A stretch of DNA of 64,000 nt from Chlamydiota bacterium (GCA_021772455.1 JAJFLY010000008.1:10741-74740), one strand, 5' to 3'. Counted from the first letter of the stretch, positions 17,042-36,847 are shown. The notes: generated from the letters alone by a model not told the origin. Translations and numbers: made by a program.

Positions 17042-17580
17042 GATTTTATGCTAGAAGAGTTAAGAAAGTTTGTCCAGATGGCGAGCTGCTCATTGTTAGG
17101 GGCTTGCTGGGACTCTGGATATTGGAAAGTAACTGAGAAGACCCAGCCGCCAACGCATGAATTTAAGCCGATCCAGGCGCGGTACTCAGCGCGCCCTGCA
17201 GGATTGAGATAAGTGGCAATCAATATGGGGTGTTTGTCCCAAAAATCTTTGCTGATCTCTACTTTGGAGCACCCCATAAGTCCAAGTCTATGCAAAAGGG
17301 TCCCTTCTTCACTAAAGGTTGTGGGGCCTTGCTGGATAATATCGCCACTAAGACGGACAAAGAAAAATATGTCATCGACTTTATGGGTTTCGAGGAGCCT
17401 TTCGATCGCTCTCTCTTCTCCCCAAATGACACCGGCATACAAGTCGGGATTGGGACCCATCACAAATGTACTCGGAATCTGTGGTTCAACACTCAGCTTA
17501 TCTGGAAAGGGAGGGAGAAGCTCTCTTCCAAAAATAGCAGGATTAACGCACAGGCAAACCAGGAATAATTTCTTCCACAT
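17038..17580 (-). CDS. secreted hypothetical protein (180 aa)
   Basis: Signal peptide MWKKLFLVCLCVNPAIFG. It sits in the minus-strand operon with a 4-nt overlap to the PRTase gene. No motif recognised. Confidence 0.55.
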   Translation of the reverse strand: MWKKLFLVCLCVNPAIFGRELLPPFPDKLSVEPQIPSTFVMGPNPDLYAGVIWGEERAIERLLETHKVDDIFFFVRLSGDIIQQGPTTFSEEGTLLHRLGLMGCSKVEISKDFWDKHPILIATYLNPAGRAEYRAWIGLNSCVGGWVFSVTFQYPESQQAPNNEQLAIWTNFLNSSSIKS

Positions 17581-19132
17581 AAGCCCACTTAAAATCTACC
17601 TGTCCCAGATCGTTCACGGAAAGGCCCTGAATTTTCGGGGACTTTAAATGTTTTGAATGCACCATATATAGTGGTATAACCGGCATCTCTTCTAAAATCA
17701 AGAGTTCTGCTTGTTTTAAGTGTTCAAGGCGCAAAATGGGGTCGGCTTCCTGGTCGGCAAGATCGAGTAGCTGCTGGTAGTGTTTGCTCTCCCACTGGGG
17801 GCTATTATATCGATGTGTTTTGTCCTTAAAAAACTCGAGTGTGTAGACGGGATCATGAAATTGACAGTACCAGATGCATCCACCAATTTGAAACTGTCTC
17901 TCACCTAAATTGGAGAAAAAGACGTTCCACTCAGAAGCTATAAGCTCGACCTTGATTCCAAAGGTCTTTTCCCAATTCTGTTGAATCGCTTCAGCTAATT
18001 TTTTTTGGCCAGGAATAGTGCTGTAGCTGTACTTGAGGATTGGAAATTCTTCGCGGGTGATGCAAAGTTCCTGCAGCCCTTGCTCAAAGAGCTTGCGAGA
18101 TTTTTGCTCATTGGAGTCAGGAGAGAGATCGCTTGAGCCTAAGGAGGATAAAGATAAAGGGACGATGCTTTTTGTCGGAGTTTCGCCATGTGCGACATGT
18201 TCAGCAATGACCTCACGGTTTAACGCAACAGAAAGAGCTCTACGAATCTTTGAGGAGTTGAGGGGGAATTTTTCAGTGTTCAGACTGATCCAATAAACCC
18301 CGGAGATGGGTCGGGTGTTGAATTCAGAAGAGCTGGAGATTTTATCGAGTGTATCATGGGGAATGGTTGAGAATGGATGGCCAACCCAATCAATCTCTCC
18401 TTTTTCGTACATAAGAACGACTGTATTAGGATCGTTTACAAATGTGGTTTGAATGGTTTGGAGATGAACAGCGTCTGCATCCCAATATTGGGTGTTTTTC
18501 TCAAGGACGAGTTGTTTGTCATGCTCCCATTTTGTGACGGTAAAGGGTCCATTGAACACTTGAGGATTTTCAGAGTCATCGTAGAGGGGAGAAAAAAGAG
18601 AGCTTGAAATGAGATTGAGAAAATAGGGGGTTGGATGCTCAAGATCGACGATTAGGGTTTTGTTATCGACCGCTTGAATGCCCACTTCATCGAGAGAGAC
18701 CTCACCACACTTGGCTTTTTTGGCATTTTTAATGGAGTAGAAAAGGTCGGCGCGCAAGCAGTTGGATCCTTTAGCGATGGCAGCCTTCCAGGTTCTCTCA
18801 AAGTGAAAAGCGGTCACCTCTTCCCCGTTTGTCCAAACCATAGGACGTATGCGGAATGTATACCGTGTTTGCGAGTGAGAGATGTCTAGCTTTTCCGCTC
18901 CTGCCAGCTCGGGAATTCCTTCGGGCGTTAGACGCGTCAACCCTTCAAAAAGGGCCTTTTGGAAGTTGCGGCACATCGCGTCAATTCCCGTATGTGGATG
19001 GAGGGAGGTGAGATCTGCTTGATTATTTATACGTAGTATTTGTGAAGAGGACATCTGTTTTTCCACATTGTTTTGTTGGTTTTGACACCCACTCAGAGCA
19101 ATTAGTATAATCAGTAGCCATTTATTTTTCAT
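17543..19132 (-). CDS. oppA: peptide/oligopeptide ABC transporter substrate-binding lipoprotein (OppA-like, 529 aa)
   Basis: I trimmed the start to the ATG at 19132, 5 nt after the upstream stop. This gives MKNKWLLIILIALSGC (lipobox LSGC). The rest has family-5 SBP length and composition and is paralogous to the C-terminal half of the upstream ORF. Confidence 0.85.
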   Translation of the reverse strand: MKNKWLLIILIALSGCQNQQNNVEKQMSSSQILRINNQADLTSLHPHTGIDAMCRNFQKALFEGLTRLTPEGIPELAGAEKLDISHSQTRYTFRIRPMVWTNGEEVTAFHFERTWKAAIAKGSNCLRADLFYSIKNAKKAKCGEVSLDEVGIQAVDNKTLIVDLEHPTPYFLNLISSSLFSPLYDDSENPQVFNGPFTVTKWEHDKQLVLEKNTQYWDADAVHLQTIQTTFVNDPNTVVLMYEKGEIDWVGHPFSTIPHDTLDKISSSSEFNTRPISGVYWISLNTEKFPLNSSKIRRALSVALNREVIAEHVAHGETPTKSIVPLSLSSLGSSDLSPDSNEQKSRKLFEQGLQELCITREEFPILKYSYSTIPGQKKLAEAIQQNWEKTFGIKVELIASEWNVFFSNLGERQFQIGGCIWYCQFHDPVYTLEFFKDKTHRYNSPQWESKHYQQLLDLADQEADPILRLEHLKQAELLILEEMPVIPLYMVHSKHLKSPKIQGLSVNDLGQVDFKWAYVEEIIPGLPVR

Positions 19133-22100
19133 CTCTATCCTTTTTAGTGTTTTCAAGATAGGCGGCACGGATGTCGATTTGATTGGAGTTCGAAAGGACA
19201 TATCCTTTTAGCCGCGGATTTTTTACATAGCGGAATTTTTGATAGAACAGTGGAATAACTGGCATTTCATCTAGAAGAATTTGTTCGGCTTGATCGAGAA
19301 GAGCATGACAGGCTTTATGATCTTCAGCTTGCTTGGCTTTTTCGACTAAGCGCGCATACTTGAAATTTTTCCAGCTTGTGATACGCAGGGTATGTTCTCG
19401 ATAGACGATTAGGTCATAAAAATAGCAGGGATGGTCGTGTCTGGGATACCAAACAAGCCCTCCAACCATAAAATCGCCCCGATGAAGCGATTCAAAATAT
19501 TCATTCCAATTGCGTCGCTCATAGATAACTTTTACTCCTAGAGCCTCTTCCCATTGTCTCCCAATCTCACGGCTAATGGATTCCTGTACTTCGATTTCAC
19601 TGTGGGTGAAGACAATTGGGGGAAGTCTATTCGCTGATAAACCTAGATCTTCCAGTCCCTTTTTAAAATAGAATTGAGCCAGTTTAGGATCATTATCTGG
19701 GAAGTTGCGGAGCGGAGCTGGAGAAGAAGAATTAGCAAACCCATAAGCTGGAGTATCAACACTATTTAGGATTTGGTCGATTAAATGTTTTCGATTCAAA
19801 GAGTATGCGAATGCTTTGCGCATATTGAGACTTTGAAAGGGGAGGTGGTCGTGATTGAGTTGTAGCCAGAAAAGGCCGAAATGTTTGTCATCGACCTCTA
19901 ACAAGTTCTTCTTTTTCAAATTTGGAATTAGAGGAGGGTGGATTTTTGTTAACGGATCGCCTAGCCAATCGAGTTCCCCGCATGAGAACAAATCAAAAGC
20001 GGTTTTTTCGTTTTCAATAACACTCAGTTGGATACGGTCAAGTTTTACAGAAGGCGTATCCCAGTAGTTTGGGTTTTTTATCAGCTGAAGTTCGTCATTT
20101 AACTTCCATTTGTCGAGTTTGAAAGGGCCGTTGCAGACATATGTCTCGCCGCTATGGTAGGCCCACCCGGGATGTTTTTGATCTATCTCCCGGCAAAGGG
20201 GTGAGTAGACCCAGCTTGCTGATAATGAAAGGAATGTAGAGAAGGGGTGCTCAAGCTCCACAGAAAGCGTTAGGTTATCGATGGCTCGAATTCCCACTTG
20301 ATTCATCGGGAGCTCTCCCTTTTTTACCGCTTCTGCGTTTTTGATAGGAAAAAAGAGAAGGGAGTAGGGAAAACGGAAGTCGGGTTCTAGGATTTTTTTC
20401 CACGCATACTCAAAATCATAGGCAGAGAGAGGGGCTCCGTTAGACCAGCTGCTTGCGCGTAGATGAAAGCGATAGGTTTTTCTGTCTTCCGAAAGGGTGT
20501 ACGATTCTGCAATCGCTGGTTCGATTTCTCCCGTTTGGGCGATGCGCATGAGCCCTTCATAGAGCATGCAAATGACCACTCCGGAGTTTCGATCTGAACC
20601 CATGCGAGGATCTAGCGATTGGGCAGCTCTTGGAAGGTGGAGGTGGAGGACTTGGAGGTTTTGCTTCTTTTCCAGCCACGATGAAATCGTGGTGTCGATT
20701 AAATGGGTACAATGATCAGCTTGCTCTCGAGTTGGTTTGAGGTAGAGGCAGCAAAAATAATGGAATCGATCGACTTCAATTGAAGAGACTGCGAGTTGAA
20801 GAGTATCGGTTTCCAAAGGTATCAGAACTTCGGTCAGTTTCTCCTTGAGCTCGGGGTGGGTCGATTTAATGACGATTGCAAGAGCGTCATGACGGGCATC
20901 TATTTTTTTAAGACATTCATCTTGTTTAGGAAGGGGAACCTTAAGCATCTCTAAAAAAAGCGAGCAGAGCATTTTTCCTTTGTCAGGAGCAATATAGGTT
21001 TGCATCACCGAAGGGGTGAGTGAGTAGAAAAGATTTTCCAATAAAAAGGCATTTTCTTTTCCCTGCGGTCCGAGCTCTTCTTTGATCGCTTCTAGCTGCT
21101 CATTTTGTTTGAAAAGAAAGCCTCCATTATAATCGCGGAAGGTGCCTACCATCATTTCGAGGGATTTTACGACATATTGACGCGCCTTCACAAGGTCTAC
21201 AGAGTGGTTTTTTCGAAGAAAAAGCTGGTTTTCGATTTCAAGGGTGAAGACATGCGCCTCCTTGACGTATTTCTTGCGAAGCAAGCCCACATTAGCGATC
21301 CGCTCGGGAATAAAATGGACGTTAGGGGGTAGGAAACGGCTGAGTTTAGTTAAGTTGCGGCTATTTTTTGTAAGAACCCTCAAAAGAATGATGTTGAAAC
21401 GGAGTAAATCATTCTGCTGGTCTTGAAATGAGATGAACGCCTGCGGGAGATCGCGCACGTAGCGAAGCTCCTGGCTTAGGTTAATGATGTTCCGGATCAG
21501 CTCTTCTTCATTGCGTGGGATAAAAAGGGAGGGGGAGAGGTACTCGATGCTGTTTTTTAATTCACCCGGTAGCTTTTGTTTTAACTTCTTGATTTCATCA
21601 AGGGTGAAATCACCCCCTTTAGTCTTTTCAATCTCCAGATAGATAGTGAGTAGGCGATTTTCTTCATTTCTGTTGGAGTAATAGGAGTCTTGAGGCGCCT
21701 TTACTTGCTCTGGAATAAGTTGTTGAATCGCTTTTAGGATGTGACGGAGCTCAAAAGATTCGTAATCCTGCAAGGAATTGAGACAGATCGCGATTCCAAG
21801 CACTTTTTTTAAGCCAAAAGGGTAGTGCAGATGCGTGTGCATGAGCTTCAGATAAAGGTGGCGGCTGTGGGGGAAGAGTTTAGAATCTTTTTCGACGGCT
21901 TTTTGAAAGAGGTAGTGGGCGTAAATGATTCGGCATAAATGACGATGATCTCTGATTTGGCGAAAATCTTTTCGGCAATGAGCTAAAAAGTGTTGGATTT
22001 CGCGAAAGATATCGTCGGAGAACCGTTTCGGGTAGCGGCGAATCAGTTCTACTGCTGAATCGTGGATGTAGGAAGTGTAACCCTCCTGCGAAAGGCGTTT

Positions 22101-22562
22101 CATTTCCAGAATATGCTTGGCATGCCCTGAAGTTAGAGCCCCCAGCTTGATCTCTTGAGCGAGTCCTGGAAGACGCTTTTGGACAGCTTGAAGTGTCTTT
22201 TCATCGGGTACGTGAACGAGCAATTCAATAAAAAATAGAGGGGTTTTCCAATAGGGGAGTTTGAAGTCTAAATTTCTGGATGAAAGTAGCTTAAGTTGTT
22301 TATTGGGGACGAGCCAGTTTGTCGACATTTCTTCTACAAAAAGCATAGTTTTCCGGCTCCACTCAGAGGAGCAGAGAAGATAGAGAGAGAAAGCCCCGGG
22401 AGCAACGTTTACTTGCTTCCACTTTACCAGAGGGAGTTTTTTTGCGAGGTCTTCTTGGGTTGCAAGTTCCCGCCCAAAAACCTTGTTTGCAACTTTAAGC
22501 AAACTCTGTTTGTGCTTTTGTAAGTGATCGCTATCTGAAGAGGTTGCTTCCTCTTGGAGCAT
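19122..22562 (-). CDS. fusion protein: uncharacterised ~635-aa N-terminal domain plus OppA-type solute-binding domain (1,146 aa, no signal peptide)
   Basis: The N-terminal half is collinear with the 623-aa ORF at 45899-47770 (e.g. RNEEELIRNIINLSQELRYVRDLPQAFISF vs QNEEMVMRNIVTLSHQLKFVGDLPQVMIDF; FRKNHSVDLVKARQ vs FRKNHSVDLYKARK). The C-terminal half (from ~LHLHLPRAAQSLDPRMGSD) is a family-5 SBP. The N-terminus MLQEEATSSDSDHLQKHK is polar. Confidence 0.8.
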   Translation of the reverse strand: MLQEEATSSDSDHLQKHKQSLLKVANKVFGRELATQEDLAKKLPLVKWKQVNVAPGAFSLYLLCSSEWSRKTMLFVEEMSTNWLVPNKQLKLLSSRNLDFKLPYWKTPLFFIELLVHVPDEKTLQAVQKRLPGLAQEIKLGALTSGHAKHILEMKRLSQEGYTSYIHDSAVELIRRYPKRFSDDIFREIQHFLAHCRKDFRQIRDHRHLCRIIYAHYLFQKAVEKDSKLFPHSRHLYLKLMHTHLHYPFGLKKVLGIAICLNSLQDYESFELRHILKAIQQLIPEQVKAPQDSYYSNRNEENRLLTIYLEIEKTKGGDFTLDEIKKLKQKLPGELKNSIEYLSPSLFIPRNEEELIRNIINLSQELRYVRDLPQAFISFQDQQNDLLRFNIILLRVLTKNSRNLTKLSRFLPPNVHFIPERIANVGLLRKKYVKEAHVFTLEIENQLFLRKNHSVDLVKARQYVVKSLEMMVGTFRDYNGGFLFKQNEQLEAIKEELGPQGKENAFLLENLFYSLTPSVMQTYIAPDKGKMLCSLFLEMLKVPLPKQDECLKKIDARHDALAIVIKSTHPELKEKLTEVLIPLETDTLQLAVSSIEVDRFHYFCCLYLKPTREQADHCTHLIDTTISSWLEKKQNLQVLHLHLPRAAQSLDPRMGSDRNSGVVICMLYEGLMRIAQTGEIEPAIAESYTLSEDRKTYRFHLRASSWSNGAPLSAYDFEYAWKKILEPDFRFPYSLLFFPIKNAEAVKKGELPMNQVGIRAIDNLTLSVELEHPFSTFLSLSASWVYSPLCREIDQKHPGWAYHSGETYVCNGPFKLDKWKLNDELQLIKNPNYWDTPSVKLDRIQLSVIENEKTAFDLFSCGELDWLGDPLTKIHPPLIPNLKKKNLLEVDDKHFGLFWLQLNHDHLPFQSLNMRKAFAYSLNRKHLIDQILNSVDTPAYGFANSSSPAPLRNFPDNDPKLAQFYFKKGLEDLGLSANRLPPIVFTHSEIEVQESISREIGRQWEEALGVKVIYERRNWNEYFESLHRGDFMVGGLVWYPRHDHPCYFYDLIVYREHTLRITSWKNFKYARLVEKAKQAEDHKACHALLDQAEQILLDEMPVIPLFYQKFRYVKNPRLKGYVLSNSNQIDIRAAYLENTKKDRDEK

Positions 22563-22709
22563 TTTGTACCGCCTTTGCGGGAAGTATTGGGGTTTACAGT
22601 TTTTAAATCAAATTTTAATCAAAATTTGACGCGTTTGTAAAATAGTTTGCTGTAAAACTCAATCGTATTAAAATAGATTCAAAATATCTTATGAAGTATC
22701 ATATAATAT

Positions 22710-25700
22710 ATGGGTGGAGAAAAAAAATGGTATAAAGAAGCGATTATCTACGAGCTGCACGTCAAGTGTTTTAGCGATAGCTCGGGAGATGGGTTTGGGG
22801 ATTTCAAAGGGTTAACCCAAAAACTCGACTACTTGCAAGACCTCGGAGTGACAGCGATTTGGCTTCTCCCATTTTACCCCTCTCCTTTAAAAGATGATGG
22901 GTACGATATCGCTGATTACACAGACGTTCACCCACAGTATGGTAGGCTGCAAGATTTTAAGACGTTTTTAAATGAAGCGCATCGTCGCGGTCTGAAGGTG
23001 ATCACCGAGCTTGTAATCAACCACACTTCCGATCAACACCCCTGGTTTCAAAAAGCACGTCATGCAGAAAAAGAATCGAAGCTGCGCGATTTTTATGTTT
23101 GGAACGATTCACCCGAAAAGTACAAAGATGCGCGGATCATTTTCCAAGATTTTGAGAGCTCAAATTGGACATGGGATCCGATTGCAAAAAGTTATTATTG
23201 GCACCGATTTTATTCCCATCAGCCCGATTTGAATTTTGAAAACCCCGCTGTCCACGAAGCGATTTTTCAGAAGCTGAGCTTCTGGCTGAAAATGGGTGTC
23301 GATGGGGTGCGTCTTGATGCTGTGCCCTATTTGTATGAGAGCGAGGGGACCATCTGCGAAAATCTTCCTCAGACCCACGCCTTTTTAAAGAAATTGCGCA
23401 CCTACATCGATGAGAATTTTGAAGACCGTATGCTTTTGGCGGAGGCAAATCAATGGCCAGAAGATGCGGCAAAATATTTCGGGTCCGGCGATGAGTGTCA
23501 TATGGCTTTTCACTTTCCAGTGATGCCGCGCCTCTTCATGTCGATCCATTTGGAAGATTCGCTCCCAATTATCGAGATCATGGGACAAACCCCCCAAATC
23601 CCTACTAATTGTCAGTGGGCTCTTTTCTTGCGCAATCACGATGAATTAACGCTTGAGATGGTGACCGATGAGGAGCGCGATTACATGTTTCGTGTCTATG
23701 CGCACGATCCACAAGCGCGGGTCAATCTTGGAATTCGCCGTAGGCTCGCCCCGCTTTTAAAAAATGACCGTCGCAAGATCGAATTGATGAATACGCTGCT
23801 CTTCTCGCTTACTGGAACGCCTGTCCTCTATTATGGTGATGAGCTTGGGATGGGGGACAATATCTATCTTGGAGACCGTGACGGGGTGCGTACACCGATG
23901 CAGTGGAGCAATGACCGCAACGCCGGTTTTTCCCGTGCCAATCCGCAGCAGCTCTACCTCCCGCCCATTATCGACCCTGAATACCACTACGAAACATTGA
24001 ATGTCGAGGCTCAACTCAACAATCCCTACTCGCTTTTGTGGTGGACAAAGCAACTCGTTGCGCTGAGAAAGCGGTACAAAGCATTTAGCTACGGAACAAC
24101 GGAGTTTTTGATTCCTGAAAACCGGAAAACTTTGGTCTTTTTTCGAGAGTGTGAAGACGAGCTGTTGATGGTTATCGCAAACCTCTCTAGATTCCCTCAG
24201 TACGTAGAATTAGATTTAAAGAAATACGATGGCTACAGTCTTGTCGAAATGTTCTCAGGACAGAGCTTTCCAAATATCGGGGAGCTGCCCTACTTTTTGA
24301 CACTGGGCCCTTACGGCTACTACTGGTTTTCTCTAAAAAAGGAGCCTGAAGTGAGTGAGCTTGCCTTGGCTGTTAGAGAAAAAGAGCAGCAGATTATAGA
24401 GTTTACCCATAAGATCGAGCTCAGCGAGATTTTCCAAACTTCTATGCACCGCACTCTTGTGGGTATTTTGAGCAAGTATTTAGCCAAACGGGCGTGGTTT
24501 CAACCCTATCTTTCTCAGCTCGATCGGACAAAAACGCGCATTGTCGATCATCTCCACCTCTCAAAATGGGACCTTCATCTTGTAATGCTTGAAATCATGC
24601 TTATGAACGGGGTTATCCATAAAATTCCTCTTTTTGTTCGCCTTGACAAGAGAGGAATTCAGACACGTCCAGAGTTTGTGATCGCACAGTTTGAAAATGG
24701 TGTGCTGTACGAGGATTCAGAGATCACGGAAGTGCTCGATGACATTATCTGCAACAAACGCAGGTTCTGCTCTGATAAGGGAGAAATGCGTGGTGTGAAT
24801 CTGACAGCGGATCGAGATTCTGTCCTTTTAGAAAATGAATCAATGGATCAGCACCGCGAAAAGGAGGGGGTCATTTTACCTCTCAAAAATGGGGTGTTAA
24901 AGGCTTTTACGATGGTCGAAGAGGGGCTGAAGCTCGATGTCGAGATGCGTCTCTTTCTCACCCAGAAAACCGATTTTCGCGCGTTTATCCCTCTTCGGGG
25001 ATATATTGAGTATTCGACCCATGCACGTACAACGGTCGCTTTAGTTGAGGAAATTGCAGCTCATAGAACGGAGTTTAATGCGAAAGAGCTGGCTGTAGAG
25101 GCTGCTGATCGCTTTTTACTTCGCATGGAAGCAAACCCCCATGACATCGCGGTGCCGAAAGACTCTCTTTTAACTTTAGCAATGGGAACACTCGAAGAGG
25201 ATGTTCATACCCTTTTGGAGGAGCAACTCGAGGTCTCCCGCCTTCTAGGAGAGACGACGGCCCATTTCCATCAGGCAATGTGCTCCTCTCAAATCGACCC
25301 CGATTTTGCCTCGATCCCTTTTACCCTCTTTTATCAACGCTCTTTATACCAGAATATGCGCCGCAAAATTCTTGAAGCTGTCGAACATAAAGATCTTGGG
25401 AAGGAATATGAAGAGCGCTTGCTAAAGCTATTGCAGAATCTTCCCCATGAAAAGCTAAATGCCGAGAGGATCCGGTGCCACGGAAATTTTGTCCTTGAGA
25501 ACCTCCACTATACGGGAAAAAAGTATCTGATCGGGAATTTCGAGGGCAAGCAAGATGCGACCTACAACCAAAGGCGCTATAAACGCTCTGCCCTTGACGA
25601 TTGCGCCTCTATGATTCTCTCCTTCTCAGAGGCTGGATTTGAAGCTATCGACCGATTGAGACAGCGGGGTACGCTTCGTGACGACCAGATCGAGCTTGTA

Positions 25701-25925
25701 AATAAGTGGGCGCAGGTGTGGTCGATATGGGTTAGTGCTTCATTTTTAAGAGCTTATTTCCACACTCTCGGTCAAGCCTCTTTTCTTCCTAAGGATACGA
25801 AAGAAATAGATTTTCTTCTCGGGATCTTTTTGATAGAACAGTGTGTTGATAAGGTTGCAACCTCTAAAGGGAACGCGCCTATTTCAGCGCTGCTGCATTG
25901 GCTTCCGATTTATGAATCTTTCTGA
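22710..25925 (+). CDS. treS: trehalose synthase fused to a maltokinase-like (Pep2/Mak) domain (1,071 aa)
   Basis: GH13/TreS motifs WYKEAIIYELHV, GVDGVRLDAVPYL (nucleophile), LLAEANQWP (acid/base), FLRNHDELTLE. The C-terminal ~480 aa align by eye with mycobacterial maltokinase around RCHGNFVLEN...LIGNFEG. Confidence 0.9.
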   Translation: MGGEKKWYKEAIIYELHVKCFSDSSGDGFGDFKGLTQKLDYLQDLGVTAIWLLPFYPSPLKDDGYDIADYTDVHPQYGRLQDFKTFLNEAHRRGLKVITELVINHTSDQHPWFQKARHAEKESKLRDFYVWNDSPEKYKDARIIFQDFESSNWTWDPIAKSYYWHRFYSHQPDLNFENPAVHEAIFQKLSFWLKMGVDGVRLDAVPYLYESEGTICENLPQTHAFLKKLRTYIDENFEDRMLLAEANQWPEDAAKYFGSGDECHMAFHFPVMPRLFMSIHLEDSLPIIEIMGQTPQIPTNCQWALFLRNHDELTLEMVTDEERDYMFRVYAHDPQARVNLGIRRRLAPLLKNDRRKIELMNTLLFSLTGTPVLYYGDELGMGDNIYLGDRDGVRTPMQWSNDRNAGFSRANPQQLYLPPIIDPEYHYETLNVEAQLNNPYSLLWWTKQLVALRKRYKAFSYGTTEFLIPENRKTLVFFRECEDELLMVIANLSRFPQYVELDLKKYDGYSLVEMFSGQSFPNIGELPYFLTLGPYGYYWFSLKKEPEVSELALAVREKEQQIIEFTHKIELSEIFQTSMHRTLVGILSKYLAKRAWFQPYLSQLDRTKTRIVDHLHLSKWDLHLVMLEIMLMNGVIHKIPLFVRLDKRGIQTRPEFVIAQFENGVLYEDSEITEVLDDIICNKRRFCSDKGEMRGVNLTADRDSVLLENESMDQHREKEGVILPLKNGVLKAFTMVEEGLKLDVEMRLFLTQKTDFRAFIPLRGYIEYSTHARTTVALVEEIAAHRTEFNAKELAVEAADRFLLRMEANPHDIAVPKDSLLTLAMGTLEEDVHTLLEEQLEVSRLLGETTAHFHQAMCSSQIDPDFASIPFTLFYQRSLYQNMRRKILEAVEHKDLGKEYEERLLKLLQNLPHEKLNAERIRCHGNFVLENLHYTGKKYLIGNFEGKQDATYNQRRYKRSALDDCASMILSFSEAGFEAIDRLRQRGTLRDDQIELVNKWAQVWSIWVSASFLRAYFHTLGQASFLPKDTKEIDFLLGIFLIEQCVDKVATSKGNAPISALLHWLPIYESF

Positions 25926-28275
25926 AATACCAACATCTGTCTATCGCTTTCAGCTAAACGGTGATTTTCCCCTAAAAAAAGCGATTCAATATCTCCCCTA
26001 TCTTAAAGATTTAGGTGTGGAGGGGGTCTATTGCTCTCCCTTTTATGATGCTTTTAGCCCACACGGATATGATGTCACCGATCCGAACAAACTCAATCCT
26101 CAAATCGGAACTCCCGAAGAGTTTGAAACGTTTTGTAAAACGCTTAAAAAACTAGGACTCAAGCAAATCCTCGATGTCGTTCCCAACCACATGGGTTTCA
26201 AGGGAGGCAAAAATAAATGGTGGCAAGATGTTCTCGAAAAGGGCCCAGGCTCTCAGTATGCCCACTTTTTTGATATCAATTGGAATCCTGAGAAACACGA
26301 GCTGCAAAACCGCGTCTTGCTCCCCATCTTAGGGACAAGTTTTGGTGAGGCTTTAGACACGAACGCCATTCAGCTCCACCATGAAAATGGACGTCATTGG
26401 TATACATATGGCGATTACATCCTTCCAGTGGCCCCTAATACCGATTCAAAATTGGATAAACAACACTATCGCCTAGCCTATTGGAAGGTGGCGAGTCACG
26501 AGATTAACTACCGCAGATTTTTTAACATCTCTGAGCTTGTTGCAATTCGGATTGAAGACGAAGATGTTTTAGAAGCGCACCACAAGTGGCTTTTCGAGCT
26601 CATAGAAAAAGGCTATGTTCAGGGCTTAAGGATCGATCATCCCGATGGCCTTTACGATCCGGTTACCTATTTTGATCGTTTGCGCGCCCGTTATCCAATC
26701 TACACTGTTGTCGAAAAAATTCTCGATCGAGAAGAAGATCTGCCCGAGAATTGGAAGGTAGAGGGGACGGTCGGCTATGAATATGTAAACGTATTAAACG
26801 GTCTTTTTATCGACCAAAGCCACGAGCGCGATTTGGATGCAATTTATCAAGAATTTATCAGAGAGGCTCTCGATTTTGATGAAATTGTCTATCAATCGAA
26901 AAAGCTTTTTGCCGAGTATGAAATGGTGAGCGAAGTGGAAGCGCTTGGATTTCTTCTCGACCGCCTCTCGGAAAAGAGTCCTTATTACCGCGACTTTACC
27001 CGTTACGATTTAACCAAAGCCCTATCTGAGGTGATCGCGTGTTTCCCGGTTTATCGCACTTATATTGCCCCTGGAGGGAAAGTCAGTACACGCGATTCCA
27101 AATACCTCACAGTTGCCATTGAAAAAGCGAAAATGCGCGCCACCGATCTCGACCCCTCGATTTTCGATTTTCTCGATAAGTTATTGCATCTGAAGTTGGG
27201 AGATGAAGAATTTGTTTTAAAATTCCAGCAGCTCACCGCCCCGCTTATGGCAAAAGGGGTAGAAGATACCGCATTTTATCGTTACAACCGCTTTATCGCC
27301 CTCAATGAAGTGGGAGGAGATCCCACCCATTTTGGGTATTCGGTCAGCGATTTCCACCGATTTAATCAAGAGAAACTGAAAAAATGGCCCTTGGGTTTCC
27401 TCGCATCCTCCACACACGACACCAAGAGAAGTGAAGATGTGCGGTATCGCCTCGATGTTTTGAGTGAGATTCCTAAAGCATGGCACAAAGAGGTTGTAAA
27501 ATGGAGTGCATCTGTAAAAAGTAAGGGCGTCTCAAAAAACACCCAATATTTGATTTTTCAGCTCCTTGTAGGCGTATGGCCGTGTGAAAAAGAGCGTCTT
27601 TGGGAAGTTGTGTTAAAATCGATCCGTGAGGCGAAGTTAGAGACAAATTGGATCTTTCCTGACCTCGCATACGAAAAGAAGGTGCGCAAATTTCTTTTTG
27701 AGCTGCTCGAAAACGCAAATATTCTCTTTTTCGTGCAGCAGATAGAGCATTTTGGCGCGCTTAATAGCTTATCAGCGACGGCCATAAAACTCGCTTCATG
27801 CGGAGTTGTCGATATCTATCAGGGGAATGAACTACTCAACTACCAACTTGTCGACCCCGATAACCGCACTCCCGTCGATTTTGAATGGCGTGAAAAAGAG
27901 TTAATGGCGATTAAAAAGGGTGACACCTCCAACTTGAGTCGGTTAAAAGGGTTTTTGCATTGGAAGGGGCTTCATTTCCGCCACGACCACCCCGCCCTTT
28001 TTCTGGAAGGTGATTACATACCTTTAGAAGTGAAGGGACAAAAAAATAAGCACTTAATCGCCTTTATGCGCATGCATGGAAAAGAGGCCTTGATCGTCTT
28101 AGCTGGGCGCTTTTTTGCCTCCCTCGAAGATGATTGGGAAGATACGGAGGTTGTCATCCCGAAAGACTACACATGGACCGAAATTTTTACGGATACGAAG
28201 ATCACAAATTTCTTAGTTTCCGATATTTTTAAGCAACTACCTGTTGGGTATATTTATGGAAAAAGTAGCAGCTGA
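25912..28275 (+). CDS. treY: malto-oligosyltrehalose synthase (787 aa)
   Basis: I trimmed the start to the ATG at 25912, which overlaps the treS stop by 14 nt. GH13 motifs DVVPNHMG, GLRIDHPDGL, VVEKIL; FLASSTHDTKRSEDVR is typical of TreY. Confidence 0.9.
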   Translation: MNLSEIPTSVYRFQLNGDFPLKKAIQYLPYLKDLGVEGVYCSPFYDAFSPHGYDVTDPNKLNPQIGTPEEFETFCKTLKKLGLKQILDVVPNHMGFKGGKNKWWQDVLEKGPGSQYAHFFDINWNPEKHELQNRVLLPILGTSFGEALDTNAIQLHHENGRHWYTYGDYILPVAPNTDSKLDKQHYRLAYWKVASHEINYRRFFNISELVAIRIEDEDVLEAHHKWLFELIEKGYVQGLRIDHPDGLYDPVTYFDRLRARYPIYTVVEKILDREEDLPENWKVEGTVGYEYVNVLNGLFIDQSHERDLDAIYQEFIREALDFDEIVYQSKKLFAEYEMVSEVEALGFLLDRLSEKSPYYRDFTRYDLTKALSEVIACFPVYRTYIAPGGKVSTRDSKYLTVAIEKAKMRATDLDPSIFDFLDKLLHLKLGDEEFVLKFQQLTAPLMAKGVEDTAFYRYNRFIALNEVGGDPTHFGYSVSDFHRFNQEKLKKWPLGFLASSTHDTKRSEDVRYRLDVLSEIPKAWHKEVVKWSASVKSKGVSKNTQYLIFQLLVGVWPCEKERLWEVVLKSIREAKLETNWIFPDLAYEKKVRKFLFELLENANILFFVQQIEHFGALNSLSATAIKLASCGVVDIYQGNELLNYQLVDPDNRTPVDFEWREKELMAIKKGDTSNLSRLKGFLHWKGLHFRHDHPALFLEGDYIPLEVKGQKNKHLIAFMRMHGKEALIVLAGRFFASLEDDWEDTEVVIPKDYTWTEIFTDTKITNFLVSDIFKQLPVGYIYGKSSS

Positions 28276-30028
28276 AAAAACATGGCAACTAGGACTTGGA
28301 GCCAACTTCGACAAAAATGGGAACACGACCTTTAAGGTTTGGGCTCCTTATCGCTCTTCTTTGCAATTGAAAGTGGTTGGAAAAGAGACCTATTCGATGA
28401 AGCGCGATCGAGATGGATTCCATACATTCCAAACCGATCAAGTCGTTCCTGGAGACCAGTATTATTATATAACGATTCACGACCGGGCAAGACCTGACCC
28501 AGTATCAAGATCTTTGCCCCACGGTGTTCATGGCCCCACAGAAGTAATCGATCCCCACGCCTTTACTTGGGATGATCAAGAGTGGAAGGGGATTGCCATA
28601 CGTGATGCGATTCTCTACGAAATGCATGTTGGCGTCTACACTCCCGAGGGTACTTTTGATGCAGCAATCGGCAAACTCCCGTATTTGAAAGATTTAGGGA
28701 TCAATTGCATCGAGATTATGCCCCTTGCCCAATTCCCGGGCCGTTTTAATTGGGGATACGATGGAGCCTCTCTCTACGCACCTTTTGGCGGGTACGGAGG
28801 AGCTGAAGGATTTAGGCGTTTTGTCAATGCATGCCATAAAGCAGAAATTGCTGTCTGTTTAGATGTTGTTTACAATCATCTTGGTCCCGAAGGAAACCAC
28901 CTACAAGAATTTGGTCCCTATTTTAGCCATATCTACCACACTCCATGGGGTAAAGGCTTTAATTATGATGGCATGAATAACGGCACAGTTCGTGAGTATG
29001 TGATTAACAACGCCCTTTACTGGATGCACGAGTATCATGTCGATATGCTGCGTCTCGATGCCGTTCATGGGATTTATGATATCAGCGCTATACCCATGCT
29101 GCAGGAATTAACCCAAGCCGTCCAAGAAGCTTCCACGAATTTAGGACGCAAGCTCCACGTTATCGCTGAAACGGGTCTCAATGATACACGGGCGATTCGC
29201 ACCAAAGAGTATGGTGGGATGGATCTGTGTGCCATTTGGAACGATGATTTTCATCACACAGCTCACGTCGCACTCACCGGGGAAAAGACGACCTATTACA
29301 GCGATTACAACGGCCTTCTTGACTTGGCCACTACCCTTTCAAAAGGTTTTGTCTACGATGGAAAATTCTCCGAATTTAGAAAATGTCGCCACGGCAACTC
29401 AGCTGCAGATATCCCTTTCGAGAAGTTGATCGTCTTTCTTCAAAACCACGACCAGACAGGAAATCGTCCCATGGGCGATCGCCTTTCGACACTTGTAAGC
29501 AAAAATAGACTGAAAGTAACAGCCTGCATGACCTTGTTATCTCCCTCGGTTCCCATGTTGTTCATGGGTGAAGAGTATGGAGAGACCGCTCCCTTTGAAT
29601 ACTTTGTTGATTATGAGAATGAAGCGTTGATGAACTCCATTTTCCAAGGGCGCAAACACGAGTTTCATTGTGACGATATGCCCTATCCAGGTGAAGAGTC
29701 TTTCAATAATTCCCAATTGACGTGGAAGGAAGATAGCGAGATGCTTACGCTCTATAAGACCCTCATCAACATCCGTAAGAACAACCGCCCAAAAGAAGGC
29801 ATTACGGGCGTAGACATCCACGTTTATAGCTCAGAGGAAGAGGAGTGGGTTGCTTGGGAGTATCCGACAGAAAAAGGGGAGTGGCTCGGAGTTTTTCTCT
29901 ATCTCGGTTCTGAAAAATTGGCTTTTTGCCCACCTTTTCAAAAAGCAAAGGGAGAGATTCTCCTGGCAACTCAAAAAACGGATCAAGGGCAGTTATGTCC
30001 AGATACGTGTTTAGTTATAGGGTCATAG
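28256..30028 (+). CDS. treZ: malto-oligosyltrehalose trehalohydrolase (590 aa)
   Basis: The ATG at 28256 overlaps the treY stop by 20 nt. GH13 motifs DVVYNHLGPEGN, MLRLDAVHGI, VIAETGLND, FLQNHDQTGNR. Confidence 0.9.
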   Translation: MEKVAAEKTWQLGLGANFDKNGNTTFKVWAPYRSSLQLKVVGKETYSMKRDRDGFHTFQTDQVVPGDQYYYITIHDRARPDPVSRSLPHGVHGPTEVIDPHAFTWDDQEWKGIAIRDAILYEMHVGVYTPEGTFDAAIGKLPYLKDLGINCIEIMPLAQFPGRFNWGYDGASLYAPFGGYGGAEGFRRFVNACHKAEIAVCLDVVYNHLGPEGNHLQEFGPYFSHIYHTPWGKGFNYDGMNNGTVREYVINNALYWMHEYHVDMLRLDAVHGIYDISAIPMLQELTQAVQEASTNLGRKLHVIAETGLNDTRAIRTKEYGGMDLCAIWNDDFHHTAHVALTGEKTTYYSDYNGLLDLATTLSKGFVYDGKFSEFRKCRHGNSAADIPFEKLIVFLQNHDQTGNRPMGDRLSTLVSKNRLKVTACMTLLSPSVPMLFMGEEYGETAPFEYFVDYENEALMNSIFQGRKHEFHCDDMPYPGEESFNNSQLTWKEDSEMLTLYKTLINIRKNNRPKEGITGVDIHVYSSEEEEWVAWEYPTEKGEWLGVFLYLGSEKLAFCPPFQKAKGEILLATQKTDQGQLCPDTCLVIGS

Positions 30029-33640: not shown

Positions 33641-34294
33641 TTATGCAATCACTGGGATGATGAGATTAGTTACTTGTAGAGAGTGTTCGTGGAATCCAGC
33701 TTCATAGAGATCGCGGGCAATCCCTTGCAGTGTCTCTGTTCTGACAGTAACATCTCTCAATTGAACGATCTCATCGATTCTCCGCAAGGCGCCAGCTAAA
33801 TGAAATGCTTTATCAAAAACCGGAGACTGAGGGCGCTTAGAGCGTTCCGCTCTTTCATACTCTTTATTTCCTAGATCCGCTAATTCGCAACACGCTTTCT
33901 CTCTTGCATCTTCTGAATCTTGAAGCAATAATGGATCTAGTATCGAATCAAATTTTAATTTTTGCTCTAAATGAAATCTTCTTTTTTCTACTATATCTGA
34001 CAAGGCTCGCCATTGCCTACAAACGGCCTTTGTTGATTTTAAATCATTACGAGGAAGATGAAGGAGCACGTTATGAATAATTTCGAGAGGAAGTACTTGA
34101 TTCTCTAGATTAAATTTTGTTTGTTCCACCGCAGTCCATAACTTATAAAAAGCGGCCTCTGCAGGTTTTAAATCCTCGTGCGGAAGATAAAGGAGTACTT
34201 TTTTAAAAATTTCGGGAGGGAGCTGATTTTTTATCAGACTTTCCTCGCTTGAAAATTGAGGAAGCTCACCACCTCTGTTTGTTACTGCGCTCAT
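33641..34294 (-). CDS. eukaryote-like protein with two tandem F-box motifs (218 aa)
   Basis: I trimmed the ORF-track TTG extension to the ATG at 34294. LPPEIFKKVLLYLPHEDLKPAEAAFYKLW and LPLEIIHNVLLHLPRNDLKSTKAVCRQWRAL match the F-box consensus LPxEIlxxIlxxLxxxDLxxxxxVCKxW. Confidence 0.7.
   Translation of the reverse strand: MSAVTNRGGELPQFSSEESLIKNQLPPEIFKKVLLYLPHEDLKPAEAAFYKLWTAVEQTKFNLENQVLPLEIIHNVLLHLPRNDLKSTKAVCRQWRALSDIVEKRRFHLEQKLKFDSILDPLLLQDSEDAREKACCELADLGNKEYERAERSKRPQSPVFDKAFHLAGALRRIDEIVQLRDVTVRTETLQGIARDLYEAGFHEHSLQVTNLIIPVIA
33962..34222 (-). repeat. tandem duplication (~43-aa period) of the F-box module at protein level
   Basis: Residues 25-67 and 68-111 of the trimmed protein align position by position (LPxEI..VLL.LP..DLK...A...W......K/R.F.LE). 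Confidence 0.6.
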
Positions 34295-34748
34295 ATTATT
34301 ACTAATGGTTATTAAACAACCAATTATATCAATTTTTCGTAAGTCACACAATAACAAACGTTTATATGACAATTTAAAATAAATACTAGTAGTGGGATTG
34401 TTGAAGAATAGCTCTATTCTCCCCTTTTGGCTGCTTTTTGCCCAATTTGAACGATCGCTCGCTCGCCGTATGGGAAATACTGTCTTCGCTCGCGATCGTC
34501 CAACTCGAACAAAAATCACCAAAAGCTCTATTTTTACGCTCTCAAGGATCGATCTTCCTAAGATTATAACACATGCACAGTAGAGTGAATTGAAGTGAGT
34601 TTTTGAGCCAACTCCGATACCGCACTCGTCTATTGGATACTGAATTTCTGGATCGGGGCGCTTAAGATAAGTTTGACATCTGCCGTCTCCGGTGTTAATA
34701 CAATCGCTTTCATAACTCCTGTTCTAACACACTGGTTTGATATACGAA

Positions 34749-35828: not shown

Positions 35829-36176
35829 GAGCATGGGAATGGTGATCATTCCGAGGCCGATATAATATTTTTCTGAACAACTTGGACCCGCTCCGCAAAT
35901 GTCGATCGGATTCCAGCCTGGGATCTCCTGAATGGCGATCTGGTAGAGAGCTACCACAAGGCCGATGATTATCTGCGGTAGTACGTAGCGGGTGATGTCA
36001 AAGAAGCTTTTATAAGCTGCGATTCCGAGGATGATGACTAAGGGAAAAAGACAAATCCGTTGAAACCAGCACATGTGACACGGTTCTAGGTGGCGAATTT
36101 CGCTGAAATATAAGCTCACGAGCGTGCCGATTGAAGCGAGTAGCCATGCAATATAGAGTTCTAAACTTCGTGCCAT
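35745..36176 (-). CDS. dsbB: disulfide bond formation protein B (DsbB/BdbC family, 143 aa)
   Basis: Four TM helices, a CxxC in the first loop (CHMCWFQR) and a second Cys pair (ICGAGPSC). Confidence 0.75.
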   Translation of the reverse strand: MARSLELYIAWLLASIGTLVSLYFSEIRHLEPCHMCWFQRICLFPLVIILGIAAYKSFFDITRYVLPQIIIGLVVALYQIAIQEIPGWNPIDICGAGPSCSEKYYIGLGMITIPMLSAAGFIVIGVFLLLCWKRNTRKQMEEK

Positions 36177-36847
36177 TAATATACCCCTTCGTGCTCGAGA
36201 ACTTCTTGGATCAATTTGGAAAGTCCATCTACTGTGAGCTCTTTAACTTCGATTCCGTTTACATACACTGTAGGTGTTGAGATCACTCCCCCCATTACTT
36301 TCGCGCCATACTCGGTGTTCTTCTTGATTTGGACGCGGTACTTCTCCATATCGATACATCTGGTGAGCTTATCGATCTTGATGGCAGGAGAGGTTTTCTT
36401 AGCAAACTCTCCAAGCTCAGCAGATGTTGCCCAATCGGTATGTTCGTCAGGTTGGTGTTCGTAAATGTAGTCGAAGTAATTTAAAAACATCTCACTGTTT
36501 GGATAGTCAGGGTCGGCATTGTAGACGCACAGAAGGGCAACGGCAGCTGGCATCGATCCAGGTAAAAATGAGACGGGAATAACGGTGTAGGTTACCTTGT
36601 TTGTATCGATGAACTCTTTTTTGATCGTTGGAAAAACCATATCATTATAATCGCGACAATTGGAGCACTTTGGTTCCTCGAAAACGACAATATGGACGCG
36701 GGCTTTTGGATAGCCGATTGTGGGTTGTCCTTCTGTATCGAGTTCAATTGCGGGAGGGAGCTCTGTTGAGCATAGATAATAAATTGTTCCACAAGCAATA
36801 ACAAGTAACGCAAAAGTAAAAACAACCAACGATTTAATATGACGCAT
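36176..36847 (-). CDS. DsbA-like thioredoxin-fold thiol:disulfide oxidoreductase, membrane-anchored/secreted (223 aa)
   Basis: N-terminal hydrophobic anchor and a CxxC active site (EEPKCSNCRDY). Its stop abuts the dsbB start. Confidence 0.75.
   Translation of the reverse strand: MRHIKSLVVFTFALLVIACGTIYYLCSTELPPAIELDTEGQPTIGYPKARVHIVVFEEPKCSNCRDYNDMVFPTIKKEFIDTNKVTYTVIPVSFLPGSMPAAVALLCVYNADPDYPNSEMFLNYFDYIYEHQPDEHTDWATSAELGEFAKKTSPAIKIDKLTRCIDMEKYRVQIKKNTEYGAKVMGGVISTPTVYVNGIEVKELTVDGLSKLIQEVLEHEGVY

Follow-up and report, generated by a model that had tools for sequence, protein, structure and literature searches.

Synthesis of DAP and lysine, and with it that of the peptidoglycan required for chlamydial division, begins with aspartate kinase. 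In canonical aspartate kinases, an ACT region of ~160 aa and two modules lies directly C-terminal to the catalytic domain, and in the alpha2beta2 enzymes the beta subunit is a separate protein. ACT-like modules are usually non-catalytic, and fusions of aspartate kinase with downstream enzymes are known. As intracellular bacteria, chlamydiae draw on peptide import as their chief source of nitrogen and amino acids, and the SBP_bac_5 domains of solute-binding proteins (SBPs) are normally extracytoplasmic.

The regulatory N-terminus of the large glutamate dehydrogenase L-GDH180 has a ββαββα topology, termed ‘ACT*’, and the same variant was noted in aspartate kinases (Lazaro 2021, PMC8175468). For this N-terminal segment, a role as a metabolic sensor in control of an enzyme of amino-acid metabolism has been proposed (PMC8175468). 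SgrR and DsvR are known cases of SBP_bac_5 domains that act as sensors in the cytoplasm (PMC13060122). In the OppA of S. enterica, Asp419 is the anchor that binds the N-terminal amine of the peptide (PMC5736914).

Here we describe a chlamydial gene that fuses an array of predicted ACT-like modules to a leaderless OppA-type SBP, and we link the family of its N-terminal domain (N-domain) to aspartate kinase. What is new, as judged from gene and domain order, is that stand-alone members of the family adjoin an ACT-less kinase and that natural fusions between the two exist. Our literature search found no account of the N-domain family or of an ACT-less chlamydial aspartate kinase.

Results

The window analyzed here is a stretch of 64,000 nucleotides from a Chlamydiota bacterium (GCA_021772455.1, JAJFLY010000008.1:10741-74740). 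The fusion gene occupies positions 19122-22562 on the minus strand, begins with an ATG and encodes 1,146 aa. The ORF call, translation, Pfam and alignments all confirm the two halves reported in a preliminary description of this DNA: the N-domain (residues 1-635; 20658-22562) and an OppA-type SBP_bac_5 half (residues 636-1146; 19125-20657). This architecture is kept in at least 23 diverged SBP-fused relatives, which are at 27-53% identity and have a common junction, ‘...W..K...Q.LRI...SLDPRIG’.

We considered whether two genes had been run together, either through a sequencing or assembly frameshift or because a stop codon was lost. Many of the relatives come from MAG assemblies, some gene calls are truncated (P0047 has 881 aa versus 987 aa for P0398), and the call in locus L085 is split. 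However, the junction is in frame in at least 23 members of different assemblies, down to 27-30% identity, and is without a leader in every case. No frameshift was found between the halves, a possibility that the preliminary description had raised, and on the strength of the conserved junction we rejected an artefact or pseudogene as scarcely credible. These comparisons argue that the fusion is real and old. In neighbor-joining point trees the SBP fusions form one clade of 21-23 members, and strict monophyly is recovered in 31 of 100 bootstraps, or in 4 of 100 on a shorter region. Given this low recovery, a firm single origin was not upheld, and we treat the SBP fusion as having arisen once or a few times.

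The gene downstream of the fusion encodes an OppA lipoprotein (17543-19132, minus strand; MKNKWLLIILIALSGC) with a signal peptide and an LSGC lipobox. Its ATG is at 19132-19130 and the stop codon of the fusion is at 19124-19122, an overlap of 11 nt in a different frame, rather than the 5-nt spacing given previously. This arrangement indicates that the fusion is translationally coupled to the lipoprotein oppA. The terminal gene of the apparent operon belongs to the phosphoribosyltransferase (PRTase) family by Pfam (16403-17041, minus strand), and the order fusion, SBP, PRTase is found again in the relative locus L085. In L083 the fused gene is followed by oppA alone and in L081 and L086 its neighbors are unrelated genes; beyond close relatives, there is no conserved neighborhood. 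A consensus scan found a promoter-like TTTACA-18-TAAAAT ~50 nt 5' of the fusion ATG (22612-22641, minus strand), which matches the consensus at 10 of 12 positions, although such sites are no commoner in the region than expected by chance. The Rfam search matched no riboswitch or other RNA (e.g. a lysine riboswitch) 5' of the fusion or the kinase gene, and no Rfam family or tRNA was matched anywhere in the window. The oppD and oppF genes lie at 61756-63677, ~40 kb from the fusion and its adjoining lipoprotein oppA, and no oppBC turned up in the window ORFs that were run against Pfam.

In the Pfam scan, the only match on the fusion is SBP_bac_5 (PF00496), at residues 679-1053, with a score of 210.9 bits (gathering cut-off 32.4). 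The downstream OppA is 31% identical to residues 637-1137 (E 3e-82), so the C-terminal ~510 aa are indeed an OppA-type SBP paralogous to its neighbor, as had been claimed. The SBP half resembles the cluster-C SBPs OppA, DppE and MppA: its residues 4-501 are collinear over the full length with residues 22-524 of B. subtilis OppA (8are, E 1.7e-98), and it also matches DppE (E 3.3e-76) and MppA (E about 2e-50). Unlike these proteins, the fusion has neither signal peptide nor lipobox, and its SBP is joined to a 635-aa domain of cytoplasmic type. A Kyte-Doolittle scan, with the window's own OppA lipoprotein as the positive control, detected no signal peptide, lipobox or TM-like segment at the N-terminus of the fusion or at the junction, where the SBP half starts. 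The same scan found a hydrophobic leader, lipobox or TM segment in none of 22 fused members (the fusion and 21 relatives). The missing leader noted in the preliminary description thus extends to the relatives, and because there is no export signal the protein is most likely cytoplasmic.

A further difference from OppA and MppA is seen at the position of the amine anchor. Arg1041 (19440-19442, minus strand) falls in the column of Asp419 of enterobacterial OppA, where WYPRHDHP of the fusion aligns with WCADYNEP of Y. pestis OppA (2z23) and WVGDYNEP of MppA. This column has Gln in the neighboring lipoprotein OppA and W, H, K, Y or F in the other fusions; Asp was found in no fused relative. Because the Asp419-type anchor is replaced, the ligand of the SBP half may not be an ordinary peptide.

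The N-domain has a stand-alone paralog of 623 aa in the window (45899-47770, plus strand), whose gene call is identical in an independent assembly. Residues 39-631 of the fusion align with residues 45-622 of the paralog at 37% identity (E 5e-115), and the alignment includes the identical blocks quoted in the preliminary description. No Pfam, NCBIfam or PADLOC model matched the N-domain or the 623-aa paralog, and a PDB sequence search with the family profile also came back empty. No named family could thus be assigned to this half, in keeping with the earlier statement that it has no nameable motif. No HTH or SgrR_N family was matched in the fusion by Pfam or NCBIfam. When 50 members and the HMM consensus were searched against Pfam at E up to 10, the result was noise plus one faint GDH2_N match, with no match to an ACT family; among the Pfam GDH N-terminal models, that faint match was to PF23147 (E 0.0028), in 1 of 50 members, and the consensus had none.

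The family comprises 1,009 clusters at 50% identity and matches 504 genome stretches. Most matches are without an organism name, and those with one are nearly all Chlamydiota. Some are labelled Verrucomicrobia or Acidobacteria, which we take to be mis-binning. Apart from these labels, the survey agrees with the earlier proposal of a lineage-specific family.

Conservation is highest in a linker at residues 340-373 (21444-21545, minus strand) that contains PRNEEE and DLPQ, and in which N351, E353, D371 and P373 are invariant in the family alignment (A1). The same alignment has a conserved RDYNGG loop at residues 476-481 (21120-21137, minus strand) with R476, D477, Y478, G480 and G481 invariant. 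In a comparison of 240 stand-alone and 24 fused members, R476, D477, G480 and G481 show no exceptions in either lineage (frequency 1.0). The SBP-fused lineage retains 42 of the 53 positions that are at least 90% conserved, among them every invariant one.

AlphaFold2 (AF2) models of the N-domain (pLDDT 89) and of a 244-aa fragment (pLDDT 94.4), analyzed with DSSP, predict four ββαββα modules, all on the minus strand: module 1 at residues 43-156 (22095-22436), module 2 at 234-339 (21546-21863; within the fragment), module 3 at 374-474 (21141-21443), which bears the KKYVKEA and R..HSVDL.KAR motifs of alignment A1, and module 4 at 548-635 (20658-20921). In the models and the junction alignment, the last helix of module 4 continues directly into the first strand of the SBP. 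Module 1 is missing from the ‘short’ SBP fusions, which are most of them, and from some kinase fusions.

In Foldseek searches, the only PDB match that is significant by E-value is L-GDH180 (7jsr), with E 1.2e-8 and probability 1.0 for the 635-aa model and E 8.8e-4 and probability 0.99 for the fragment. TM-scores are low (0.13-0.31; TMq to 7jsr of 0.13 for the 635-aa model and 0.31 for the fragment). The tandem-ACT protein 2nyi was also matched, with probability 0.85-0.90. By these models the N-domain fold is predicted to be ACT-like, which gives substance to the small alpha/beta modules, ACT- or ferredoxin-like, that had been suggested from the sequence. The canonical ACT topology, βαββαβ, is absent, as all four predicted modules have the permuted ‘ACT*’ arrangement (PMC8175468). 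An internal repeat was not apparent from hhalign among the four modules (probability at most 1.1%). Compared with the ACT regions of 57 canonical aspartate kinases, alignment A1 and each module gave hhalign probabilities of no more than 0.6%, so descent of the N-domain from the canonical ACT pair is not detectable.

The start of the 623-aa paralog is overlapped by 11 nt by the stop of an aspartate kinase gene (45127-45909, plus strand; NCBIfam). Its product, 260 aa with a GRGGSD motif, consists of the catalytic domain only and is without ACT domains. NCBIfam aspartate-kinase models match it over profile positions 4-247 of about 407, and TIGR00657 reaches 254 bits (cut-off 208.7). The best 120 homologs of the kinase are all 249-307 aa long, with PF00696 alone. 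In 74 of 80 genomes an ACT-less kinase of ~260 aa is encoded directly before the stand-alone member, with a median gap of -2.5 nt between the kinase stop and the first ATG, an overlap in 43 of the 74, and a kinase tail of at most 39 aa; in the other six genomes the stand-alone member is away from any kinase gene.

In addition, there are at least 11 natural fusions of the kinase to the N-domain family, in three architectures (modules 1-4, 2-4 or 3-4). The family follows the catalytic domain directly, at the position of the ACT domains in canonical kinases, and module 1 is the module that adjoins the kinase in the full-length fusions. These data indicate that the aspartate kinase of these chlamydiae has lost its classical ACT domains, and a large unannotated protein family appears to have taken over control of the kinase. 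The SBP-fused gene is 23 kb from the kinase gene in the window, and the two are not adjacent in L081 or L083-L086 either.

Discussion

Comparison with described systems places the N-domain closest to the N-terminus of L-GDH180 (7jsr), which consists of ACT*1-3, a PAS domain and helical motifs. Both are predicted or known to contain tandem ββαββα modules with helical spacers, and L-GDH180 is the one PDB entry that the 635-aa model and the 244-aa fragment each match at E below 0.001. However, there is no sequence-level similarity, TM-scores are low and no PAS domain was recognized in the N-domain. The array also lacks a GDH catalytic domain, and instead occurs alone or fused to aspartate kinase or to an SBP.

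With the ACT region of canonical aspartate kinases, the family shares an ACT-like fold class and, in at least 11 fusions, its place directly after the catalytic domain. Like the beta subunit of alpha2beta2 aspartate kinases, it can also be separate, as the product of the next, overlapping gene. The family is larger, however, at about 300-620 aa and four modules versus ~160 aa and two modules, and it lacks a Pfam ACT match, with an hhalign probability below 1%. Finally, the fusion resembles SgrR and DsvR in having a leaderless C-terminal SBP_bac_5 sensing module in what would be a cytoplasmic regulator. It differs in that the partner is a predicted ACT-like array, not a DNA-binding domain, so the output would be protein-protein or allosteric and not transcriptional.

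We propose a model in which the family is the detached regulatory subunit of the kinase and the fusion is a paralog that works as a cytoplasmic sensor of a peptide or other ligand, probably on the kinase; we give this reading roughly even chances. The preliminary description suggested a generic sensor or regulator and did not have the link to the kinase, and it is the coupling and the repeated kinase fusions that turn this into a specific, testable one. Stand-alone members would be an enlarged regulatory subunit of the ACT-less enzyme of Chlamydiota, with four ACT-like ββαββα modules and, around the linker between modules 2 and 3 and the RDYNGG loop, a polar site of high conservation. One copy of the regulator would then have lost linkage to the kinase gene and gained a C-terminal OppA-type domain without an export signal. 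The resulting protein, most likely a cytoplasmic, oligomeric sensor, would close its SBP half on a peptide-like ligand, e.g. one brought in by Opp, the importer whose oppA is co-transcribed with the fusion. The ligand state would then be relayed by the ACT-like array through protein-protein contact, with the shared aspartate-kinase catalytic subunit, which feeds DAP, lysine and peptidoglycan synthesis, as the likeliest target.

Such a fusion would tie peptide import to biosynthesis, and would represent a new wiring of a periplasmic-type binding module into cytoplasmic allosteric control. Hundreds of ‘hypothetical proteins’ gain a concrete candidate function. The predicted fold is otherwise known solely from the regulatory arm of large glutamate dehydrogenases, itself little understood. 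The family may also be a tractable model for ACT*-type regulatory arrays.

Several observations speak against this proposal. The fused gene never adjoins a kinase gene, most SBP fusions are without module 1, and stand-alone members can themselves be found away from the kinase. TM-scores are low, and at the sequence level the family does not resemble canonical ACT domains, the kinase ACT region or the Pfam GDH N-terminal models. A domain that follows the kinase can be the next pathway enzyme, as in kinase-dehydrogenase fusions, and an active site could be built from the family's many invariant acidic and basic residues. Replacement of the Asp419-type anchor is a further point, as the ligand of the SBP half may be something other than an ordinary peptide.

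The separation from the kinase gene in all contexts examined, together with the loss of module 1, would be expected if the fusion acted independently of the kinase, its array either serving only to hold together the oligomers of a cytoplasmic protein that binds peptides, buffers them or acts as a chaperone, or regulating another partner. ACT-like modules make subunit contacts in L-GDH180 (PMC8175468), and chaperone-like activity has been reported for OppA. We regard this as unlikely: all invariant polar residues are kept in the fused lineage, which points to a conserved specific function rather than a mere scaffold, and no alternative output domain or conserved neighbor was found. The invariant charged and polar residues (N351, E353, D371, K434, E435, R450, R461, R476, D477 and Y478) are also dense enough to suggest that the family is an enzyme acting on the kinase product or in the same pathway, with channelling as the reason for the kinase link and the SBP delivering a peptide-like substrate. 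The kinase proteins P0473 and P0474 also carry semialdehyde-dehydrogenase Pfam domains. We find an enzyme improbable, given that the predicted fold points to ACT-like modules and to the regulatory part of L-GDH180, and not to a catalytic domain, and that the kinase has lost exactly its regulatory region, whose place the family exactly occupies.

Export by a non-Sec route such as type III secretion, which the preliminary description entertained, would make the fusion an alternative Opp receptor or a host effector, with the N-domain serving in secretion, chaperone binding or anchoring. The usual extracytoplasmic location of SBP_bac_5 domains and the co-transcription with a lipoprotein oppA fit this possibility, as do the eukaryote-like effectors encoded in this chlamydial genome, e.g. 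an F-box protein at 33641-34522, and type III signals are not recognizable from sequence. However, none of the 22 fused members has a signal peptide, lipobox or TM segment, N-domain paralogs are linked, by coupling or by fusion, to a metabolic enzyme of the cytoplasm, and SgrR and DsvR show that leaderless cytoplasmic SBP_bac_5 domains exist. We consider export more improbable still than an enzymatic role.

Within the proposed regulatory model, a more speculative version, which we hold to be as improbable as the enzyme, has interchangeable regulatory subunits acting on one ACT-less kinase. The SBP-fused subunit would sense cytoplasmic DAP-muropeptides or peptidoglycan precursors, imported or recycled via Opp, and would feed back on DAP synthesis at the first step toward DAP and peptidoglycan. 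Ligands of this kind may be without a free amine at the N-terminus, a feature that would agree with the missing Asp419 anchor.

The fusion gene and its operon

The ORF at window positions 19122-22562 on the minus strand translates into 1,146 aa in two parts, an N-terminal domain (N-domain, residues 1-635) and a solute-binding protein half (SBP half, residues 636-1146). The sole Pfam match in this fusion is SBP_bac_5 at residues 679-1053 (210.9 bits). NCBIfam assigns the C-terminal half to the OppA-type oligopeptide-binding proteins, and residues 637-1137 align with the adjoining OppA lipoprotein at 31% identity (E 3e-82), which bears out the preliminary description of this half as a family-5 SBP paralogous to its neighbor. 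The N-domain recurs, as that description also had it, in a stand-alone paralog of 623 aa (45899-47770, plus strand): residues 39-631 of the fusion align with residues 45-622 of the paralog at 37% identity (E 5e-115). Neither the N-domain nor the paralog has a match in Pfam, NCBIfam or PADLOC. The two-part ORF and its recurring domain are confirmed, and the interpretation placed on them, a sensor or regulator family recruited to peptide binding, is partly supported: its ACT-like modules and missing export signal hold, and the sensing role of the fusion stays tentative.

The OppA lipoprotein (MKNKWLLIILIALSGC) had been placed 5 nt downstream of the fusion; instead, its start ATG at 19132 (minus strand) overlaps the fusion stop codon by 11 nt, so that translation of the pair is coupled. 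A promoter-like site is found ~50 nt 5' of the fusion ATG. On the 3' side follow oppA, a 180-aa ORF without family and a gene of the phosphoribosyltransferase family; each overlaps the next, and together with the fusion they seem to make up a single operon. The 180-aa ORF (17038-17580, minus strand) lies between the other two and overlaps both; it is possibly lineage-specific or spurious, because that position is empty in the related locus L085. Converging on the operon's end is a giant 2,926-aa ORF with a TTG start (7666-16446, plus strand), whose single Pfam match is DUF3638 at residues 1922-2119. Divergent from the fusion are three alpha-amylase-family genes in succession (22710-30028, plus strand), and the same divergent pair stands beside the fusion's closest homolog in locus L084. 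The first of the three (1,071 aa) also contains a weak APH-type kinase region and could therefore be a TreS-maltokinase fusion from a GlgE-type pathway. Genes for oppD-/oppF-like ATPases (ABC_tran plus oligo_HPY) lie at the window edge (61756-63677, minus strand), ~40 kb from both SBP genes, and the genes for the permease are possibly located outside the window.

A predicted ACT-like fold for the N-domain

An AlphaFold2 model of the N-domain, built from a 50-sequence alignment, has a mean pLDDT of 89 and a pTM of 0.48, so that the modules are confidently predicted and their mutual arrangement is uncertain. DSSP assigns to this model four ββαββα units of identical topology (modules 1-4; residues 45-154, 236-337, 374-472 and 550-634), with predicted helical segments between modules 1 and 2 and between modules 3 and 4; a 244-residue fragment holding modules 2 and 3 reaches a pLDDT of 94.4. 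The top Foldseek match in the PDB is 7jsr, the 180-kDa large glutamate dehydrogenase (L-GDH180) of M. smegmatis, both for the full model (E 1.2e-8, probability 1.0, TM-score 0.13) and for the fragment (E 8.8e-4, probability 0.99, TM-score 0.31); these TM-scores are low, so the match is one of fold class and not a superposition. The only other matches below E 0.001, weaker than 7jsr and obtained with the 635-aa model, are African swine fever virus RNA polymerase chains (8q3b_C, E 5.8e-5; 8yqt_C, E 4.2e-4). Weaker matches include the tandem-ACT protein 2nyi (probability 0.85-0.90), PheRS-beta, the NikR C-domain and MHC-like platforms, in which an eight-stranded sheet carries helices on one face. 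The N-terminal segment of L-GDH180 consists of three 'ACT*' domains, a ββαββα permutation of the ACT fold that also occurs in aspartate kinases, and its proposed role is that of a metabolic sensor in allosteric regulation (PMC8175468). The model places the predicted N-domain in the ACT-like fold class, as the preliminary description had guessed from its small alpha/beta modules.

By sequence, the N-domain family remains an orphan. A PDB profile search with the family gave no match, GDH2_N matched faintly in one of 50 members and not at all with the family consensus, and no sequence similarity was detectable among modules 1-4 or between the family and the ACT region of canonical aspartate kinases. 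Conservation peaks in the linker between modules 2 and 3 and directly after module 3. The invariant residues (N351, E353, D371, P373, R461, R476, D477, G480, G481 and P517) lie in the motifs PRNEEE, DLPQ, K.AR and RDYNGG, and the SBP-fused lineage keeps 42 of the 53 highly conserved family positions, all invariant ones included. In the window's fusion the conserved core is kept apart from two near-invariant residues, 162 (Lys to Tyr, nt 22077-22079) and 452 (Asp to Asn, nt 21207-21209).

Reality and spread of the fusion

A search with residues 1-635 found 122 proteins, mostly unnamed, every named one coming from a Chlamydiota MAG. The majority stand alone, at 600-730 aa, under the label 'hypothetical protein'; ~16 end in a PF00496 domain. 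An exhaustive profile search yielded 1,009 clusters at 50% identity (695 below 1e-30), further SBP fusions of 1,095-1,173 aa among them. A scan of GTDB species-representative genomes found 504 stretches encoding a relative, from Parachlamydiaceae, Waddliaceae, Rhabdochlamydiaceae, Simkaniaceae and bins labelled Verrucomicrobia or Acidobacteria, which we take to be mis-assigned.

The last N-domain helix passes into the first SBP strand within ~10 residues in all 22 fused members examined ('...W..K...Q.LRI...SLDPRIG'), and none of the 22 has a hydrophobic leader, lipobox or transmembrane segment at the junction or N-terminus, in agreement with the leaderless start first described. With this junction kept leaderless throughout the 22, a frameshift or assembly artefact is effectively excluded, and the fusion is real. 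Fused members have a long architecture (~1,100-1,170 aa), as in the window, or a short one (~950-1,000 aa) without the first ~170 residues. All fall into one clade in neighbor-joining trees of the family core, with weak bootstrap support for strict monophyly (31 of 100; median MRCA clade 25 of 258 taxa), which suggests that the SBP fusion arose once or a few times.

The SBP half is a bona fide SBP_bac_5 domain whose export signal is missing. It aligns full length with B. subtilis OppA (8are, E 1.7e-98), followed by DppE (3.3e-76) and by MppA and enterobacterial OppAs (~1e-50), and on these alignments looks like an intact binding protein with no sign of a remnant. In Gram-negative OppAs, Asp419 (S. 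enterica numbering) hydrogen-bonds the N-terminal amine of the peptide (PMC5736914). The fusion has Arg1041 at this position (WYPRHDHP vs WCADYNEP), other fusions have W, H, K, Y, F, L or V, and the neighboring exported OppA has Gln, so that this entire chlamydial group lacks the canonical anchor of the peptide N-terminus; the loss of this anchor does not predict the ligand of the SBP half. Chlamydial OppABCDF is reported to take up oligopeptides as well as peptides derived from peptidoglycan (Singh 2020, cited in PMC9928106).

Coupling of the family to an ACT-less aspartate kinase

Directly 5' of the 623-aa paralog lies a 260-aa aspartate kinase (45127-45909, plus strand; NCBIfam) that consists of the catalytic domain only, with no ACT domains, and whose stop overlaps the paralog ATG by 11 nt. 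NCBIfam aspartate-kinase models cover profile positions 4-247 of ~407, with TIGR00657 above its cut-off, and the C-terminus ('...GTLISAMNLQSVGTFYEE') falls at about the point where canonical enzymes run on into ACT domains. This ACT-less form is the rule among the 120 closest (chlamydial) homologs, all of which are 249-307 aa with PF00696 only, some annotated 'aspartate kinase [Chlamydiales]'. More distant, non-chlamydial kinases from the same kind of search carry additional Pfam domains, which we take from their accessions to be ACT families.

The coupling is family-wide. A kinase gene lies directly 5' of the stand-alone member in 74 of 80 genome loci; the kinase extends past the catalytic alignment by a median of 12 aa and by no more than 39 aa, and the median distance from kinase stop to first in-frame ATG is -2.5 nt (the genes overlap at 43 loci, and the gap is 100 nt or less at 66). 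In at least 11 distinct natural proteins the catalytic domain is fused straight to the family, in three architectures: with modules 1-4 (825-899 aa, one annotated 'Aspartokinase [Chlamydiae bacterium]'), with modules 2-4 (747-755 aa) or with modules 3-4 (553-568 aa). The family thus sits at exactly the position of the canonical allosteric ACT pair, either in cis or encoded by the overlapping gene that follows. Our literature search found no paper on this arrangement, and this unannotated Chlamydiota family with its link to the kinase is the most valuable outcome of the analysis.

The gene order tgt, transporter, kinase, paralog, DUF721, gyrB, gyrA also occurs in three other loci (L034, L039, L061). 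The window's tgt (tRNA-guanine transglycosylase) adjoins a queuosine-precursor transporter (Vut_1/TIGR00697; 43340-45155, minus strand), a pair that suggests queuosine salvage.

Proposed role of the fusion

The stand-alone family probably acts as a trans-acting regulatory subunit of the kinase. For the fusion, we tentatively propose, at somewhat below even chances, that the SBP half acts as the sensor for a peptide-like ligand and that the ACT-like array passes the ligand state on, with the catalytic subunit of the same kinase as the most plausible receiver; the 1,146-aa protein would stay in the cytoplasm. The explanation as a whole has about an even chance of being right. For the N-domain, the closest ACT-type allosteric module is the ACT* array of L-GDH180, and the ACT pair or beta subunit of aspartate kinase may be a functional analogue of the family. 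Leaderless cytoplasmic SBP_bac_5 domains are known sensor modules in SgrR and DsvR (PMC13060122), and SgrR would resemble the fusion in having its SBP-type sensor inside the cell. By analogy, the fusion would work like an ACT-type allosteric module combined with an intracellular SBP-type sensor; it lies outside the Pfam ACT, GDH N-terminal and SgrR families because their membership tests came out negative.

Three observations count against signalling from fusion to kinase: the SBP-fused gene never adjoins a kinase gene in the contexts examined, most SBP fusions are without module 1, and six of the 80 stand-alone genes lie away from a kinase (L001, L002, L025, L041, L049 and L076). In the three of these six whose neighbors were examined (L001, L025, L076), the neighbors are unrelated: a branched-chain amino-acid transporter; a ribulose-phosphate epimerase and CofD; ribosomal protein S1. 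A less likely rival explanation is that the fusion is an oligomeric binder or chaperone, independent of the kinase; the separate location of the fused genes speaks for it, and the invariant family residues that the fused lineage retains speak against it. Less likely still, the N-domain could be an enzyme and not a regulator, a reading favored by the invariant charged and polar residues and opposed by the position of the family in place of the ACT pair. Export by type III secretion (T3S), raised in the preliminary description, is an unlikely further rival to a cytoplasmic fusion; the lack of a leader in the fused members counts against it, as do the precedents of intracellular SBP_bac_5 sensors.

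Other genes in the window

A eukaryote-type F-box protein of 293 aa (33641-34522, minus strand; E 5.6e-11) is likely a host-directed effector; F-box-type effectors are known from amoeba-associated chlamydiae. A 444-aa protein with SPW repeats and a vitamin K epoxide reductase (VKOR) domain (41474-42808, plus strand), together with a Thioredoxin_4 protein (36176-36847), suggests a disulfide-bond formation system.
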